The position numbers and the translations under genes were made by a program. Below, piece by piece: positions 50,845-64,000 of a stretch of DNA of 64,000 bases (positions are counted from its first letter, which is position 1; every line of letters begins with the position of its first letter). Source of the DNA: Catajapyx aquilonaris (taxonomy: Eukaryota); contig KZ537962.1 in assembly GCA_000934665.2 (NCBI GenBank), positions 1-64,000 on the forward strand, read 5' to 3'. The notes under the pieces were generated by a model. The model was not told the DNA's origin. It ran no database searches and was given only the letters and a program-made list of their open reading frames with translations.

Positions 50845-53342
50845 GTAAATTCATCCGCATAGTAGCTAATGTACAGCCCCAGTTGGAGCCAAATCTACAC
50901 AATTAAGATTGTGATTTGATATATTGCACATATCCAAAGATGGCCACCTGTATGATTTTTGTGGAATTTCTGACCCGTTGTTACAATGTACCTTGTTCTC
51001 GAATAGGGTTGTGATGAACTATGCATAAGATGAAGAGGGTGCTGTGTAGTACTAATTCATTGCGAGTTATTTATTTATGAAAACCGCGCTAAGCAAGTTC
51101 CAGTTTGCAAGTTTTTGGGGGTATAATTTGTCTGCGGGGGACGATGGTGGTTGTGGCCCATTGAAAATTAATGCGATTCAGGGAGTGATTTGCTGACTGA
51201 GGCAGTGAGGCTTCCGGATCCTTTGACGTCAGCGCAAGGTGTTATAAAATTGATATCTCTGGTTTAATCTGGTGTCCTATTTTAGATTTGAAGGCCCATA
51301 AATAGTGCGACACATGTACATGTTTAGGTTTGAAAATATGATACACGTTCTGTTCTAGAGATATCACATGGTGATGAGGGATTGCATTAGTGTATAGGAC
51401 ATACCATGTAGTGCTCAAGCACAATGACGAATTTCAGAAAGAGTCGAGGACTAACAGCAAGCTTTGGCACAATTGGAGCCCAGCAGGTTCAACGTTTTAT
51501 AAATCACTCAGCAATATTTCCAGTTTACCATCTGGAGCGTTTCCAAATGGCGCAATTTATCATCTGGAGTACTCTCAGTGACATCTCTGCCCTGATTTAC
51601 CGCACAATTGTTTCAGCGATAATATCAGTCCAATACCGAATCCAAATAATGCATTAAAACCGGAGGAATGATTGATCGTACCTGTCCTGGAAAAGGGGCA
51701 GGTGGCAGCAGTTGAACAGTCGTTTCTCTCAAGATTCATTGCTAGATTACGCACTTCCGCCTGTAAATTAAATGCACACATTCTGTGGAGAGTTGGTTGG
51801 GTTACAATGTTGTTCTGTGGCAATGACAAAACATAAATTATGCAATTTCGCATCTATCACATTTGTGAGGCCATTACCAGTGCTACAAACTTTGTCAGCA
51901 GGCGGTTAAAAAATTTAACTGGTGTACAATCATCCATTATTTTATTATTGTTGACCGACTGTAGTGGCTGACAAGACCTTCTGTATCCTGGGAGTTAGGC
52001 TGTGTCGGTAGTATAGTTGGGCACAGTTGGTTGCTTCCAGGCCAGGATGAAATGTGGTTTCTTGAGGAATCCTCCACTGGCACGCCTGGAATCTTGCGGG
52101 GCGAATTCAATACAACCAGTCTTGCGGCTCTTTACAGCCTGCTTCTAGGTGTAGAGTTAGAGCTAGTATATTTTTTACCCCCCTCTGGACGAGACCAGGC
52201 ATCCGGCAAATTGAAAGATTAGAGCTTCCTGGTTGGAGAGAGGAAGAGGATTTTTACTGGGTAGGAGTGGGGATGGGTATAGAGCCCGATGGTTATTCTC
52301 TTTCTTTTTTCCCCCCAACCGTGCGACGTTTGCGTCGACTTAGGAGCAGTTTTTCCTAGGTCCCGGAAAAGCCCTCGCAGCAACCAAATTGAGTTTGGTA
52401 GAGCAGCCGGGACGTTTTCGCCAAAGAGGAACGGATCTCAGGAGTTACTTGAAAACTCGAATTTGCCTTTTTTCTACTTGCTGGGTTGCGATCTTTACTT
52501 TTTATGGCTTGCATTTAAGTAATATTTATGGAATTACTTTATATTTTGTACAAGTAAATTATATTATGCTCTGAGTGACACCAGAAGATTAAGTGAATAA
52601 TACTTACAAGCACAATGTAATTAATGTGATTTTGCACTTGCTGGCCAGCATATCACATCATGGAATGGAGTCTGGCCTTGGTATTTTCTCTGGGATCTTG
52701 GAGGAGAGAAGCTACTCCACAGAGTATTGATCTTAATTTGGGGTATGAACTAAGTCATAAAAACCATTGGGATCCTCTGGTGGCATCATTTCAGTAGCGA
52801 TAACCATATGTTGTGGCCCTAGCTCCTCAGGGAGAGCTTTGGGCTTGTTGATTGTTTTAATTAAAGCCGATGGAAGTCAGCCTGCTGAGCGCAAAATGCA
52901 AATCTGCTAGCTTATTATACAGAACTGAGTGATCCTCAACAAAGTTGAAGCCCCGGGACTGACTTGGTCATGCCTCAGCTGTAATAATGATCCATAAGAA
53001 GTGCATCAAAGAGAAGGAAGTGTTGTTTCTGTGCCTACTGCAATATCCGTAATAATTTATTATCATTGAGTTGAAAGCACAAGAACTAATCAGTATTCTC
53101 CGTACTCAAATATCAGTGTTGTAGAAAAGTACAAACATACCCAGCTGAATCGTGTCAGTTTCACTATAATAAATTTTTACTGGGGTTCACAAATGCCTGT
53201 CATCTCTTGCCATGCTGAACTGGACTTCAAATTCCACCTTCGGCACCAGAATTTAATTGTTGGGTGCATCTGGGATAAGTGTGGAAGTTTGAAAGTTGTG
53301 GTGCTTAAATGGCCATCATCTGTTTGTCTCCCCCCATTGCAG

Positions 53343-53521
53343 GAGCGACTCATAAAGAAGTTGGGGCCAAATGCTTACCCATTCTACTTTGAGCTCCCAC
53401 CACACTGTCCTGCTTCTGTGACACTTCAACCTGCCCCAGGAGACACTGGTAAACCCTGTGGAGTGGATTACGAGCTCAAGGCCTTTGTGGGTGAGACTCC
53501 TGATGACAAACCACACAAAAG
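53343..53521 (+). CDS. krz: beta-arrestin exon 5 ([14 protein letters not shown]...KPHK-R), 179 nt
   Basis: Matches arrestin N-domain sequence [24 protein letters not shown]. gcag| and |gtcact boundaries. Confidence 0.97.
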
Positions 53522-53602
53522 GTCACTTTTTCTCCATTAGTACTTCATCCCCTCTTGTGTGGGTCCTTGCAGTGACAATTCATTTCCATTATTCTGATGC
53601 AG

Positions 53603-53738
53603 GAATTCCGTCCGTCTTGCCATCCGGAAGATCATGTATGCTCCTAGCAAACAAGGAGACCAGCCGTCAGTTGAAGTTAGTAAAGAATTTATGATGAGCC
53701 CCAACAAGTTACACCTTGAAGCTTCACTGGATAAGGAG
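53603..53738 (+). CDS. krz: beta-arrestin exon 6 (NSVRLAIRKIMYAP...LHLEASLDKE), 136 nt
   Basis: Polar-core arginine motif SVRLAIRK, the hinge, and LEASLDKE. gcag| and |gtaagc boundaries. Confidence 0.97.
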
Positions 53739-53847
53739 GTAAGCAATGTGTTGTGAGCATCTGTAGGCAATCAGTAATGTAGTAAGGGAGAACAATTAGC
53801 ATTTAATGGAACGCAGAGTCTATAAATTATTGTTCTGTTAATTTCAG

Positions 53848-53932
53848 CTGTACCACCATGGCGAGAGTATCGCCATCAATGTACATATTGCAAATAACTC
53901 TAACCGAATTGTCAAAAAAGTCAAAATTTCAG
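53848..53932 (+). CDS. krz: beta-arrestin exon 7A ([29 protein letters not shown]), 85 nt, alternative copy 1
   Basis: ttcag| and |gtacag boundaries, phase 0 to 1. Homologous to vertebrate [27 protein letters not shown]. Confidence 0.95.
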
Positions 53933-54102
53933 GTACAGTATGTGTTTTATGCCAGGCTTAACTTTATCTTTCTTCTTCCTTCTCACTGTTGCTCGTACAT
54001 GTGAAAGTGGTGGCAGGCTGGATTGGGTAGTTTACAGTGTCATGCCATGGGTGCTCTGTACCTGGAGCAAGGAAGAAAAACTTTCTCTTTTCCTGCATGT
54101 AG

Positions 54103-54187
54103 CTTTACTGCCATGCCGAGACCATCTCAGTCAATGTCCATATCCAGAATAATTCCAGCAGAAGTGTTAAAAAGATTAAAGTGTCAG
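54103..54187 (+). CDS. krz: beta-arrestin exon 7B (LYCHAETISVNVHIQNNSSRSVKKIKVS-V), 85 nt, alternative copy 2
   Basis: ctttctcttttcctgcatgtag| and CAG|gtatgt boundaries. Same length and phase as 7A, no stops, 18/28 aa identical to 7A. Confidence 0.9.
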
Positions 54188-54833
54188 GTATGTGTCACAT
54201 TCTATGTTTTTGCATTGGTAGTTGTGCAAAGAGTAGTGAACAACTTAATTATGACTGACAAGACTGACAAAGGTCACAGCATCGCTGCTTACTGCACTAC
54301 GTAGCATTTTCTATCGTTTGTCGTATGGATCAAGAGTAGAATGTGTCTCCTATGTTTGGGATGTACTTTATGTTACTGTTACACTGAGATGCACGTAAGG
54401 GATTTTGGTAGTCATAGACAGCTTGGGACTGATGAAATGTATCTCATTGTAATTAATCATAAAATTCAAGTATTCCAAACTCGATATCCATTCCTGTTTG
54501 CTGTTTTTCACACTAAGCTGCTGGTTTTTAAGCATTCTTTAGAGAGATAACAAAATTGGTATCTTCACTCAAGCAAGTGGAAAGGAAACAAATGTCAGTA
54601 ACCAAGTGCATAAATCAAAGTAAATTAGAGATGATATTAACTGTAAATATTTTTGTTAGCTCTTAAATAAATGCTTGAAAGTTAACGCTAAGCTGAATAT
54701 TAGTCGACAGTTGCATGCTAATAAACAGCATAGTGGGGAAAATTCTTAACTCAAGCAAATGTAGGGTTTGGAATACTTTGTGCACGTGTTAAAAACTACT
54801 GATTAACGTGACCTAAATGTTTTTCCTTTATAG

Positions 54834-54906
54834 TGCGTCAGTTTGCAGACATCTGCTTATTTTCTACTGCTCAGTACAAATGTACAGTAGCAGAAATTGA
54901 GAGTGA
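54834..54906 (+). CDS. krz: beta-arrestin exon 8 (RQFADICLFSTAQYKCTVAEIES-E), 73 nt
   Basis: Conserved VRQFADICLFSTAQYKC. tatag| and |gtaagt boundaries. Confidence 0.97.
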
Positions 54907-55732
54907 GTAAGTATCAGGTACATCAGGTATGAGGGGGGATAGGCTTAGTGCAATATGCAGTGACAAATCATGGGTGCAGTCATAGAGTACCGGTACCTGA
55001 TAATGTGAAATGCTGTCCCCTTCCCAAGGCCTGTTTATGGAAACTTTGCAGTTGTGACCTGAAATGTACATTTGCATATTTCATCAGACATTGACCATCT
55101 TGGGAGGGCTCATGATCCATGTAGCATTCATTGTGTTCTTACACTGAAGTTACTGTAATTTTGTTAGGTATAATGACCTTTTTCTGGTGTAATGAGTTCA
55201 GTCTCCAGATCAAGTGAAGGATTATTATCGAATATACAGTAGTAAAATTTTGAGGAGTTATCTCTGGACTTTCCCCTAGCCCTTCTTGGGTTTTACCATA
55301 ATCTCCTAGTTTCCTTGCCTTGTTTCCTCCAATGGACCGAACTTCCCTGTGGCAAAATTTTAACTACACCCATGATCATAGTAAATGATGAACAATTTGT
55401 GGAAGAGAAAGTACGGTAATTCAACCACTGTCAATAAGAGTCTTGGAATTTTAGTGAGTGCAAAAAACAATTTGAAGTGTAGCATACAAGTTGTTCATCA
55501 TTAATTTTCACTGCAGGTTAGTAATATGTGTTAATTAAGACAGGTTTTGCCAGTACAGTGCTTGAGAAACACTTTCAGTCGGTGCAGTAAAACCTAATGC
55601 ACTGAAGTGTCATGGTGGCATGATGCTTTTATAGCAGCTCGAAATTGTAAGTAAATTTCAGGCATTGGTGCGACTGGTTCTTACATTGCACTTTGTATCC
55701 ATGAGCAGTGGAGACTGACGTCTCAGCTATAG

Positions 55733-56784: not shown

Positions 56785-56928
56785 ACAAGGATGCCCGGTA
56801 GGCCCTGGCTTCACTTTGTCCAAGGTTTTCTATCTGACCCCCCTGTTAGCCAACAATAAAGATAAGCGAGGGTTAGCGCTAGATGGTCTCCTGAAACATG
56901 AAGACACTAACCTGGCGTCCTCAACAAT
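56785..56928 (+). CDS. krz: beta-arrestin exon 9A ([47 protein letters not shown]), 144 nt, alternative copy 1
   Basis: tgttgtttcag| and |gtaagt boundaries, phase 2 to 2. Carries the lariat/gate-loop motif [19 protein letters not shown]. Confidence 0.95.
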
Positions 56929-56993: not shown

Positions 56994-57137
56994 AGAGGGC
57001 TGCCCAGTTGGGCCAGGCTTCACCCTCTCCAAAGTGTTCTCTTTAACTCCATTGCTGGCCAACAATAAGGACAAGTGGGGCTTGGCCCTTGATGGGCAGC
57101 TTAAACATGAGGATACTAATTTAGCTTCCAGTACCAT
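56994..57137 (+). CDS. krz: beta-arrestin exon 9B ([47 protein letters not shown]), 144 nt, alternative copy 2
   Basis: cttttttgttgcag| and |gtaagt boundaries. Same length and phase as 9A, 43/47 aa identical. Confidence 0.95.
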
Positions 57138-58846: not shown

Positions 58847-58876
58847 GTTTGATCGGGATCAATCCGGTACTTCAAA
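58847..58876 (+). CDS. krz: candidate 30-nt cassette microexon (M-FDRDQSGTS-K)
   Basis: ttgcag|G TTT GAT CGG GAT CAA TCC GGT ACT TCA AA|gtaatt. Phase 2-2 matches the flanking exons and there is no stop. The pyrimidine tract is weak and I have no homology support. Confidence 0.35.
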
Positions 58877-59641: not shown

Positions 59642-61810
59642 CTGAAAAAACACTCTTTGCACTGAATAACGTTCCGCATCTTCAGCAGAGTAATGTTCTG
59701 ACTGTTTTATGAAAGACGAGAAGCCAGCAAAAGCTTCTCATGAGTGCCATGACTCATGCTGAGTGACACTTGTACAGAAGAAGTGCAGGGCATTGGTAAT
59801 TTTTTTTTGCTTAGTTTTAAATATTTTCTTGCCCAGAAATGACGGGTATGACATAAACTGGGTTACACAACAATGTTTTGTATGATTATAATCATCTTTG
59901 TTCCCTTGCGACCTGCAGGGTCCTCCCTTTCCATATTTGTAATGTCTTTGTAATTCAGATGTTTGGTTTCTGTCCTACAAAGTTATATTTTGCTCAGCTT
60001 GTCTTCCATGTCCAACAACCATTTAGCTTAATCTTTTGTGTTGTTCTTATTGTATTCTACTTGTTATTGTATACTTGTGAGGTACTCCACACTTCTGTGG
60101 CCATATGTGATGCATTTGCTCAGTGTACTTTTCATCTACACTGATAGCGTCAGTAAAGTGCGCCTACAGAGGAACATGGTTGTTCCAAAAACTGAGTGTT
60201 TCTCCTTTTCAGTTTTAGCTCAGTCAAATTTTTAATTGGTAGGGTCGAAAAATCTTGCACAAACACCAAATGAAATATTTAAATTGGCATTAAAATACCT
60301 GACTTCACAAGACCTATTCCAAGAAATGAGAGAAGCAATGACTTATTACAAGGTGTTGCTCCGATGTGTGCACATCCGTAGCATCCAATGGCAATCACTT
60401 AGGACCACGTGAAGGTTACGTGCCAATAGCAAGAATTTAGCTGGACCTTGCTTGCCCTTCAGTTGTCTTATTCTGTGGTCTAGTCTTTTTGTCAAATATC
60501 GCGTCCTCTAAGGAAAGGGAGGATGACTGCATATACTCTCAACAACTGCAGTAGTCACTCTTTGTGATGCCCGCATGTAAATTGCTGTGAACAATTTTTT
60601 TTTGCATCTGTGACTTGCAAGTTACCTGGTTCTTTGCACTGTACCAGTGAATCAATGTACTGTACTGTATAGCGATGCTTGTTGTTTTGTAACAATGGTA
60701 TTTTAGAACGGCACTGATACATTAGGAACGCATTTGGAGGTTCTTTTGAATGTGTTGGCTAGGAGATGAGATTAGCTGCTCTTTTGTAAAGGAGGGCATT
60801 GTCATTCCATTGCTGCGAAATGCTAACTGAAGCAATTTGGCAACAAGGGTCCAATTTTTATCTCAGTAGTGGAGTACAGGGATGAGATTCAATTCAGATT
60901 GAAGAGTTCAATTGTAGGGAAAAGAGTTTTATATGCAACTGCCTTTTCAACTACCTGACATATTGGATGACCTCCATTGGAAACTAATTAATTTTGTCAA
61001 ATACTGCTTGTTTGTTGGTGGGCAGAGAAAAAATTGAGATGTATTCTTTAGAAGGAGATAATAATTGTTCAACACGTGCAACACATCAGTTAGCATCAGC
61101 CAACTAGGTGTTCCTGTAGGCGAGGAAAATATTTTCTTTTTTCTACATCTGGAACTGAACTTAAACTTGAAGAAAAGAGGCCAAAATACTGCTCATTTTG
61201 TATCGATTTTGACATAAGTAACCTTGTAGGGGCACGAACAAACTTGGCAAAGGTACAATGTATGCATTTGTATGTAACAATGCAGTTTTGGAAACGGGAG
61301 GCAACAGAAATGTATTAGTGAAATTGGTGCCAGGGCTTGGAGCTATGATGATGTATTTTAGTGCATACCTTTTTAACTGTGTAGGCAAAATTTTGAGAGG
61401 CATATTTCATATCACATCGATTTTCATCAGTTGTTTGCAAAGGTTGTTTAAAGATATTCCTTTATACATTGGAAAGGTGAAAGATGGCATTGTAATGAAA
61501 TGTTGTGCAAAATATTTACCAAGTGACTGCACCCAAATGCTTAACATAGAGTAATTTCGATAAATATGATGAGCTGCACATGCTGTAAAGCACCTGTGGA
61601 CTAATGGTCACTTGTATATTTTTTGAATGAACATGGCATGAATGTGATTTAGGATAACTGATTGTACTTGAGTTGCTGCTGCAGTATTTCAATGTGTAAT
61701 AATACCTTCTGCACTGAATTTATTTGCAACAAAGTTTGTTATATGTTGTATGGTAATCAATCATGTAAAGTAAGGTAAATTATTGTCAATAAAATTCTTT
61801 CCTGTAATGT
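59642..61810 (+). other. krz: probable beta-arrestin 3' UTR (about 2.1 kb)
   Basis: AT-rich non-coding sequence between the stop codon and the first canonical AATAAA I found. Confidence 0.55.
61788..61793 (+). terminator. polyadenylation signal AATAAA
   Basis: Several TGTA elements upstream and U/GU-rich sequence downstream. Lies about 440 nt before the next gene's ATG. Confidence 0.6.
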
Positions 61811-62178
61811 TTCAGTTGGCCAAAGATTCACCTTGATAAATATCACCTTAGATTAGAAAGTAGGCTATATATATTTCCATGAATCAAACCTTCTCGTGGC
61901 ATATAAAATAATGATTTTTTTCACATCATCTCAATAATCCCAGCTAATCGCAATGTGCAGGAGCTCCCAATCACATTACAGCGATGTAGTATCACAAAAT
62001 TTTCGTCTGAAACTGTTTGTGAATTTCAAGAACTTGAATGTTGCAAAGTAGAGCAAAAATATGGCACAAAATATAGCATCGACAATGTCCTTGGTATGGA
62101 CTCGCCAACTCTCTCAAAAAATTACAGAATTTAAAAAATAACAATAACAAAAAGTCAACAAAAAAACAAAACAAAAAA

Positions 62179-62240
62179 TATCGATCAAGTGCGGAGGGTC
62201 ACGTGATCAGGACACGTGACCGTCCAGCAAAGATGGCGGC
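62179..62240 (+). promoter_or_regulatory. NOMO proximal promoter and start region: DRE-like TATCGAT, two CACGTG E-boxes, YY1/TISU-like AAGATGGCGGC
   Basis: TATCGAT at 62179-62185, GGTCACGTGA at 62197-62206, CACGTGACC at 62213-62221, and AAGATGGCGGC spanning the ATG at 62233. Confidence 0.55.
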
Positions 62241-62402
62241 GTCCGAGTCGGCGAGTGCGGCCAGGATGCACCGCATTTTGCTTCTCCTCCTGGCCATAAC
62301 CGCAGCCAGTGTGGGTCCCACTGGAGCCGACGACATCCTGGGCTGCGGGGGATTCGTCAAGAGCGACATTGACCTCGATTTCGTACGGGTCGAGATCAAA
62401 CT
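62233..62402 (+). CDS. NOMO1: Nodal modulator (NOMO) coding exon 1, with signal peptide
   Basis: MAASESASAARMHRILLLLLAITAASVGPTGA-DDILGCGGFVKSDIDLDFVRVEIKL matches human NOMO GCGGFVKSDVEINYSLIEIKL. CT|gtaaga donor. An alternative Met lies at 62266. Confidence 0.92.
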
Positions 62403-62693
62403 GTAAGAACAACGCCGACACTCTTTTTTGCGGGTAGTGTTTCGGAGGGAATCGCAACTGTTCTATCCATTCGCAAGTCTGGGCCTTTTAAATAGGCCTA
62501 CCCGTTGGCTGAGGCCAAAAATAACGAGAACCACTCGCATTGTTGGGATGGTGTATATGTCCCTGATACATGATGTGATTAGAATTTGTGATTGCGTAAT
62601 TCACCATGAGGTAGTTATTTTCGGATCATTATGTTGTTGCCCCTCCCCCCAATGCTCCAGTTGCTTTTAGTAACACAGTATAATTCATTCCAG

Positions 62694-63492
62694 GTTCACC
62701 AAACAGGGGAGTCTGAAGTACCAGACTGACTGTGCCCCAAACAACGGCTACTATTTCCTTCCTCTGTATGACAAAGGCGAGTACATCCTTCGCGTGTCCC
62801 CTCCGGATGGATGGACCTTTGATCCTGCGGAGGTCCCTCTCAAAATAGATGGCTCCACTGACCCCTGCAGTAGGGGACAGGACGTCAATTTTGTCTTTCG
62901 GGGATTCTCTATGACTGGACAAGTCCTCAGCCATGGTCTGGACTCAGGCCCAGAAGGTGTGCCAGTATTTTTGATGCAGAAGGGTGCCACACTAGCAAAG
63001 ACAACAACCGGACCTGATGGCCAGTACAGCTTTGAAAAGATCATGCCTGGATCCTATGAGGTCAGGGTAGATCCACCTACTGGCTGGAAGATGATGCGGG
63101 CCAAGGCAGATGTGCACGTAAAGCGTGACAATGGGAAGGCAGTGGACCCCATTGTTGTTGCTGGATACGAAGTGTCTGGTCAAGTCGCTAGTGACGATGA
63201 ACCTGTACAAGGAGTGCAGTTTGTGTTGTTTAGCACTGATGGCCATGACCGCAAAGTGGATGGATGCAACAAAGCTCTTTTGACTGGATTCGTGCCTCCT
63301 AAAGACAAAGGAAAGCTGCTGTGCCACGTGTCTTCGAAAGCATCTGGCACCTTCACCTTTCCATCTGTTCCACCTGGAAGCTACAGGATCATACCATTCT
63401 ACAATTCTGAGCACATACGATTTGATGTGGCACCAACTGAGGTGGACTTTCAGGTCACCCATCATACTATTGACCTGCCCAGCAAGTTTCAG
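62694..63492 (+). CDS. NOMO1: Nodal modulator (NOMO) coding exon 2; the gene continues beyond the window
   Basis: FTKQGSLKYQTDCAPNNGYYFLPLYDKGEYILRVSPPDGWTFDP... matches NOMO YTKHGTLKYQTDCAPNNGYFMIPLYDKG. ccag| and CAG|gtatgt boundaries, phase 2 to 0. Confidence 0.95.
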
Positions 63493-64000
63493 GTATGTGG
63501 TTTGATGCGAAAAATTGTTCAATTAATGCAACCATTGTGTAGGGATGTATCAAAGGTTACTTTATTCCTAGGTTACCACAGTTGCTGCTGCCCCTGTTTC
63601 AGAAATTCAGGTTTCTCTTTTCCCAGCTCTCAAACTTTGTACTGTAAGCGTGATTGGTCACAGAAAAACCTTATAACAGAAATGTGACTTCCAAGGTGAA
63701 ATTGAGCACTGCTTGATCCAATTGTGTGTATAAAAAGTCACCAGAAGCTTTGTGATATCTGTTGGCACCGAATTTGTGTGAAAATTTAATTTTGCCGAAC
63801 AGATTAGCTGTTTGTAACAGTAAACTACCATTTTCTGTATGACTAATATAACTTTGTTAATGTTATACTACACCATTAATTCTGGTGCCACTTCATTAAC
63901 ACACTCACTGCTGTTAAGCCTTTTGTTCAGAGTGTCTCTGGTCAAAAAGATTGCTACCAGCATAATCTTTTGCCATAATAATAAGTCTAAAATGTTGGTG

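Follow-up and report, generated by a model that had tools for sequence, protein, structure and literature searches.

A tandem copy of exon 7 as a candidate mutually exclusive exon in a predicted kurtz-type beta-arrestin gene of Catajapyx aquilonaris

Introduction

Can a single arrestin gene supply two versions of its protein by exchanging one exon for a homologous neighbour? Most invertebrates have a single non-visual arrestin, which serves all G-protein-coupled receptors, and the question is raised here by a locus in the first 64,000 nucleotides of contig KZ537962.1 of Catajapyx aquilonaris (this whole stretch is called the window below). An initial annotation of the window proposed that exon 7 of an arrestin gene (7A) is followed by a hidden 85-nt duplicate (7B), that the two copies are mutually exclusive, and that the reading frame can enforce this, with nonsense-mediated decay (NMD) as a back-up. 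A literature search at abstract level, outside subscription journals and supplements, yielded no arrestin gene described as having duplicated or mutually exclusive exons.

Results

The arrestin gene and its exons

The gene occupies 48.2–59.6 kb of the window on the + strand. Its exon 5 matches beta-arrestin-1 chains of the PDB (E 6.6e-24) and the Pfam Arrestin_N domain (41.9 bits), and 1163 database proteins were matched at E<=1e-10; the 120 of these that were listed include named insect beta-arrestin and kurtz proteins as well as unnamed records. The spliced gene model is 85–86% identical to insect beta-arrestins over 399–405 aligned positions, and in a tree built without exons 7 and 9 the gene is nested among insects (SH-aLRT 93), with mayflies and a damselfly close by. 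With Arrestin_N and Arrestin_C domains and similarity along its full length, its sequence identifies it as a non-visual (beta-)arrestin of the kurtz type.

Exon limits were defined by 14 GT..AG joints in the spliced contigs of X1, the single run that covers the locus (32 million letters, kept as contigs; not on record as RNA). The features around exon 7 are collected in Table 1. For either copy of exon 7, exon 6 is the upstream and exon 8 the downstream partner. Open frames on the minus strand around 7A and 7B are short only, and a search of Rfam over 53000–55500 gave no matches (0).

Table 1. Features of the exon 7 region and the exon 9 pair, in window coordinates
Feature	Position	Strand	Description
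Exon 6	53603..53738	+	136 nt, ends ...LDKE, phase 0; joints 53521>53603 and 53738>53848 in X1; tblastn with insect arrestins
Exon 7A	53848..53932	+	85 nt, insect-type; joints 53738>53848 and 53932>54834 at depth 9
Intron 7A-7B	53933..54102	+	170 nt
Exon 7B, candidate alternative exon	54103..54187	+	85 nt, LYCHAETISVNVHIQNNSSRSVKKIKVS; same phase as 7A
Premature stop TAA of double inclusion	54150..54152	+	translation of 6+7A+7B+8
Intron 7B-exon 8	54188..54833	+	646 nt; short imperfect inverted repeats only
Exon 8	54834..54906	+	73 nt, VRQFADICLFSTAQYKCTVAEIESE; joints 53932>54834, 54906>56785 and 54906>56994 in X1
Exon 9A	56785..56928	+	144 nt, first copy of a tandem pair
Exon 9B	56994..57137	+	144 nt, second copy of a tandem pair

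Elsewhere in the window, a NOMO-like gene (BOS complex) lies downstream at 62077–63684 on the + strand; in Pfam it matches the first (E 1.7e-39), second and third NOMO1-like domains, and its first intron, 62403–62693, is backed by an X1 joint. At 59935, 60028, 60632 and 62808 the X1 contigs differ from the window by one base each; these sites fall in the arrestin 3' UTR and the NOMO-like gene, and allelic or strain variation is the simplest explanation.

7A and 7B are tandem copies

The hidden 85-nt duplicate is present as described in the initial annotation, with AG before and GT after each copy. The two exons are identical at 60/85 nucleotides and, being open in the same phase, at 18/28 amino acids, which confirms the 10 substitutions in 28 residues that had been counted. 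Aligned as a pair, the exons score far above shuffled sequences (z = 10.2; 0/500 shuffles as good), and the intron flanks of 40 and 100 nt are shuffle-like (z -0.6 to 1.2). By itself 7B, which sits in an open frame at 54103–54258, matches PDB beta-arrestin chains (E 3e-6), and in Pfam Arrestin_C it scores 25.1 bits against 24.8 bits for 7A, both exons matching positions 16–42. When the complete 51-aa open frame of 7B was used as a database query, it returned 3 word-sharing candidates, none scoring.

Each copy has splice sites of its own: tttcag|C and CAG|gtacag for 7A, and for 7B an acceptor of 16 pyrimidines in 20 followed by tag|C, with the donor CAG|gtatgt. Compared with the 13 other tabulated exons of the gene, 7B has signals of equal or better quality. 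7A and 7B are thus a tandem duplication: adjacent, homologous, equal in length and phase, each with its own splice sites, and 170 nt apart. Chance resemblance was rejected on the shuffle test together with the shared length, phase and splice dinucleotides and the PDB and Pfam matches, and because the two differ at 25 scattered positions they are not a duplicated assembly block.

Reading-frame consequences

The claim that exclusivity can be enforced by frame is borne out by translation. Exons 6+7A+8 and 6+7B+8 are both open, and including both copies or neither leads to a stop, since 85 is not a multiple of 3. With both, the frame meets a TAA 16 codons into 7B; with both skipped, it meets a TAG in exon 8 (54888–54890); at least four exon junctions lie downstream of each of these stops. 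The four combinations of 7A or 7B with 9A or 9B are each 400 residues long and free of stops from exon 3 to the end, so that either exon 7 copy alone is predicted to give an open protein homologous to arrestins. A product ending at a premature stop cannot make arrestin, and therefore only exclusive products would count at the protein level. Premature stops lead to mRNA decay in general, and the both- and neither-products would presumably be degraded by NMD.

Transcript data

In the X1 contigs exon 6 is joined to 7A and 7A to exon 8 at a depth of 9, which makes 7A the main form in this sample. The contigs hold no joint or cover at 7B (54103, 54187), no 7A>7B joint and no 6>8 joint. Averaged over the bin 53804–54370 the depth is 1.35, which the 85 nt of 7A at depth 9.02 would account for in full. 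Because contigs drop rare forms, X1 does not show that 7B is absent from transcripts. The junctions that the initial annotation had proposed for counting, 53738, 54103, 54187 and 54834, agree with the exon ends in the spliced contigs, with no X1 joint at 54103 or 54187. Its larger proposal, of mutually exclusive exons with an NMD back-up, thus stands as regards the tandem copies, their splice sites and the frame; splicing into 7B is the part for which X1 offers no joint.

Selection on 7B and the age of the duplication

By the Nei-Gojobori method, 7A and 7B differ at 12.5/17.8 synonymous sites (pS 0.70, saturated) and at 12.5/66.2 replacement sites (pN 0.19), giving an omega of ~0.11; a Fisher test gives p 3e-5 to 3e-4. 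When 25 differences were placed randomly on 7A, they caused a mean of 15.6 amino acid changes and 53% of the simulated copies gained a stop; as few as 10 changes or fewer with no stop arose in only 0.11% of 20,000 simulations (p 0.0011). Since the exons are alike and their intron flanks cannot be aligned, the duplication is old, and a neutral copy of such age would not have stayed intact. Taken together, the substitutions indicate protein-level purifying selection on both copies for most of the time since the duplication. The initial annotation had named neutral divergence as the pattern that would speak against it, and the pattern found (omega ~0.11) is against neutral decay. A long-dead or decaying pseudo-exon was rejected on the open frame, the intact AG, pyrimidine tract and GT, the omega of ~0.11 and the Fisher p <= 3e-4. 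Omega is measured between the two copies, however, so a recently silenced exon would look alike.

The individual residues can be set against exon 7 from arthropods (41 distinct sequences). Of the positions that match 7A and are invariant or nearly so in this set, 7B retains 17 of 18, and it keeps V10, I25 and V27, at which 7A deviates from both insects and crustaceans. On the other side, Gly5, replaced by Ala in 7B, is invariant in 41/41 of these sequences, and the Cys3 of 7B is unique. Changes specific to the lineage number at most 7 in 7B and 4–5 in the expressed 7A.

How exclusivity could be enforced

The sequence shows no enforcement other than the frame. Steric exclusion finds no support, since an intron of 170 nt, as between the copies, is of sufficient length for splicing in a gene with working introns as short as 76 and 81 nt (X1 joints). 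Incompatibility of U12 and U2 sites was likewise rejected, as both donors look U2-type by eye. The intron between 7A and 7B folds no better than its shuffles (z +0.72), and the inverted repeats of the surrounding introns have arms of 10–30 nt with 73–92% complementarity, AT-rich or of low complexity, none of them convincing for RNA pairing. A TGCATG, which we take to be an Rbfox-type motif, adjoins the 7B acceptor at 54094–54099, and another lies at 54712–54717; the window as a whole is not enriched in it (53 found against 52.5 expected), and we treat the one beside the acceptor as a lead only.

Relatives and the origin of the two copies

The initial annotation had suggested looking for 7B in related genomes, and as far as this was covered the outcome was negative: no 7B-type exon was seen in the annotated insect proteins examined, and none of 9 other loci holds a second copy. 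Among the 120 listed proteins, 104/104 of the insect proteins that have the region carry the 7A type, as do 60/60 with the region among 67 further cluster members read, multi-isoform RefSeq sets included; a 7B-type exon was seen in 0/166 insect proteins. A HMMER search of 1.84 billion cluster representatives with a 31-aa query gave 57 matches, all ordinary versions of exon 7; the best match to 7B among them reaches 22/28, and none has Cys3 or Ala5. In metagenome loci, an exon-7-like segment was present in 34/58, always a single one. A second exon-7 copy (>=10/28) was found in 0/9 other arrestin loci in which the intron between exons 7 and 8 is fully covered, two of them of insect type (L030, L033).

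Two kinds of repeat were seen in other records. P0308 (residues 283, 354 and 385) and P0309 (1 and 60) each contain an exon-7-like peptide more than once, in two or three copies that are identical; artefacts of assembly or prediction, or very recent duplication, could account for this. Metagenome contigs also hold two exon-8-like segments after a single exon 7 (L019:2591 and 2766, likewise in L021 and L023; L046:5587 and 6219; L052:7234 and 8626), a sign that other animals may have duplicated the 73-nt exon independently.

The nearest likeness of 7B lies among crustaceans. A crustacean-type set was gathered by a region-restricted search with the metatranscriptome arrestin L001, in which 120 of 600 candidates were listed; the organisms named are Penaeus, Cherax, Scylla, Portunus, Oratosquilla, Daphnia, Lepeophtheirus, ostracods and isopods. 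Q15 occurs in 27/28 distinct crustacean-type sequences, typically LYYHGET[IV][SA]VNVHIQNNSNK.VKKIKVS, and in 0/13 insect ones; since the query was itself of the Q type and likeness to it governed the choice of the set, Q15 need not hold for crustaceans as a whole. 7A is of insect type (HIANNSNR), with the insect states H3, A9 and A15. 7B resembles the crustacean type (ETISVNVHIQNNS), with which it has T7, S9 and Q15 in common, at up to 23/28 positions; its R20 is common to insects, and its C3, A5 and S19 are unique. The step from A15 to Q15 takes at least two base changes. In a tree of the 28 columns, 7A lies nearest to insect sequences and 7B nearest to crustacean ones. By sequence, then, an insect-like genome contains an insect-type exon 7 next to a crustacean-like one.

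These likenesses allow a tentative reading, to which we give a low probability, in which 7B would be the ancestral pancrustacean exon 7, kept beside a newer insect-type 7A at an intermediate stage of exon replacement, with two arrestins expressed. An AU test does not reject 7A and 7B as sisters (delta lnL 5.03, p 0.364) and so leaves a recent, lineage-specific duplication standing, for which reason we offer the ancestral exon as a hypothesis. If it were true, other insects would have finished the replacement by losing 7B, and the gene would have two arrestins with different membrane- and phosphoinositide-proximal strands.

A second tandem pair, exon 9, and a micro-exon

Exon 9 of the same gene is also a tandem pair. 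Its copies are identical at 102/144 nucleotides and differ at 4/47 amino acids, including R/W in KDK[RW]G of the lariat/gate-loop region; in X1 each is joined to exon 8, and there is no 9A>9B joint. In insects, the differences between annotated isoforms of equal length (8/8 pairs) all lie within the exon 9 segment; exon 7 is the same in each of these pairs. Like 7A/7B, then, 9A/9B are tandem duplicates with both copies under strong protein constraint, and their separate joining to exon 8 in X1 supports mutually exclusive use of exon 7 by precedent in the same gene. Unlike 7A/7B, both copies of exon 9 have transcript support and annotated counterparts, and they stay in frame if both are included, because 144 is a multiple of 3; the annotated insect isoform P0013 (469 aa) holds both copies in tandem. 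The contrast fits the idea that the 85 nt of exon 7 make exclusivity compulsory at the protein level.

Further downstream, X1 shows an optional 30-nt micro-exon at 58847–58876, whose joints (56928>58847, 57137>58847 and 58876>58956) coexist with 57137>58956; its inclusion inserts about 10 residues behind ...NLASST and leaves the frame unchanged.

Residues of the swapped segment

The peptides of 7A and 7B both align without gaps to residues 207–234 of natively numbered beta-arrestin-1 chains (e.g. 1g4m_A, 1jsy_A), a segment that comprises the opening strands of the C-domain, among them the one with the phosphoinositide-binding Lys232. By this alignment, exon position 26, the last Lys of KK.K, is the equivalent of K232, and the basic patch is kept in both copies, as the initial annotation had read it. 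By the same numbering the R of VRQ in exon 8 is the equivalent of R236. According to PMC10030194, K232/R236/K250 form the phosphoinositide-binding site of beta-arrestin-1, mutation of these residues (3Q) impairs function, and the site tunes the time that arrestin spends on receptors and membranes. The C-domain phosphoinositide site is thus predicted to be present, with K232 in both 7A and 7B and R236 in exon 8. The differences that had been listed for 7B are also correct: by alignment HG becomes HA (Gly5>Ala), a Cys is added (His3>Cys), and the Ser residues rise from 3 in 7A to 5 in 7B. The further idea of the initial annotation, that the Cys and Ser may be extra modification sites, is speculative.

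Discussion

We consider it rather probable, with a good share of doubt, that 7B is a functional and selectively maintained mutually exclusive exon of this kurtz-type gene, derived from an old tandem duplication and used in a minor form or in one restricted by tissue, stage or condition. Splicing would link exon 6 with one of the two copies, and that copy with exon 8, so as to yield two arrestins that differ at 10/28 residues of the segment equivalent to beta-arrestin-1 207–234. Products with both exons or with neither would run into a premature stop and presumably be degraded. 7A would be the default form and 7B the minor, tissue-, stage- or condition-restricted one. What the data show is the homology, phase and splice signals of the copies, the consequences for the frame, purifying selection on both at the protein level, and use of 7A; that 7B is spliced in at all, that NMD clears the aberrant products and that the two forms differ in function we infer.

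The most serious alternative, which we hold to be possible though improbable, is that 7B was once a working alternative exon and is now silent, a recently retired pseudo-exon that leaves 7A effectively constitutive. It would account for spliced contigs that show 7A alone and for the lack of a 7B-type exon in the annotated insect proteins examined and of a second copy in the 9 loci, and the replacement of the invariant Gly5, together with Cys3, could mean relaxed constraint. Against this, the frame, acceptor, polypyrimidine tract and donor of 7B are all intact, its Arrestin_C score equals that of 7A, and its lineage-specific changes are not many more than those of 7A; the contigs of one small run, moreover, cannot show that a minor form is absent.

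We think it unlikely that 7B serves mainly as a poison exon, whose regulated inclusion after 7A would bring in the TAA and lower arrestin output through mRNA decay. The position of that stop, within 7B and with several junctions downstream, suits such a role, as does an inter-copy intron long enough to splice; a poison exon, however, has no need of the selection seen on the amino acids of 7B in the frame of 7A. The lack of a 7A>7B joint in X1 also speaks against it, weakly, as such products may be degraded. It is extremely improbable that 7B was never an exon and owes its likeness to 7A to chance or to the assembly, since the missing transcript cover in X1 that would agree with it is set against the z of 10.2, the identical length, phase and splice dinucleotides, the PDB and Pfam matches and the scatter of the 25 differences.

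If 7B is the mutually exclusive exon that we favour, the pair is probably a known device, mutually exclusive exons from tandem duplication with frame incompatibility as a back-up. FGFR2 IIIb/IIIc is a tandem-duplicated, mutually exclusive pair with frame incompatibility and an NMD back-up. Like pairs of that type, 7A and 7B are homologous neighbours that share a phase and have a length that 3 does not divide, and either alone is in frame; they differ in belonging to another gene family and in that the use of 7B and the decay of the aberrant products are here predictions. In arthropods, Dscam1, 14-3-3 zeta and Mhc have exon clusters governed by docking-site/selector RNA pairing. These too are tandem alternative copies in an arthropod gene, but near 7A and 7B the short imperfect repeats and the fold give no convincing intronic pairing. 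Vertebrate beta-arrestin-1, with its isoforms 1A and 1B, is another non-visual arrestin whose C-domain is alternatively spliced, although there the isoforms differ by a cassette insert elsewhere in the protein, and no homologous exons are exchanged.

If 7B is never spliced, the locus would be an example of an intact-looking duplicate exon that is open to over-interpretation by gene predictors and readers. If instead the exons can be swapped, they would give a single arrestin gene receptor- or tissue-specific variants without gene duplication, and a natural pair of variants around the Lys232 equivalent would amount to a ready-made structure-function experiment.
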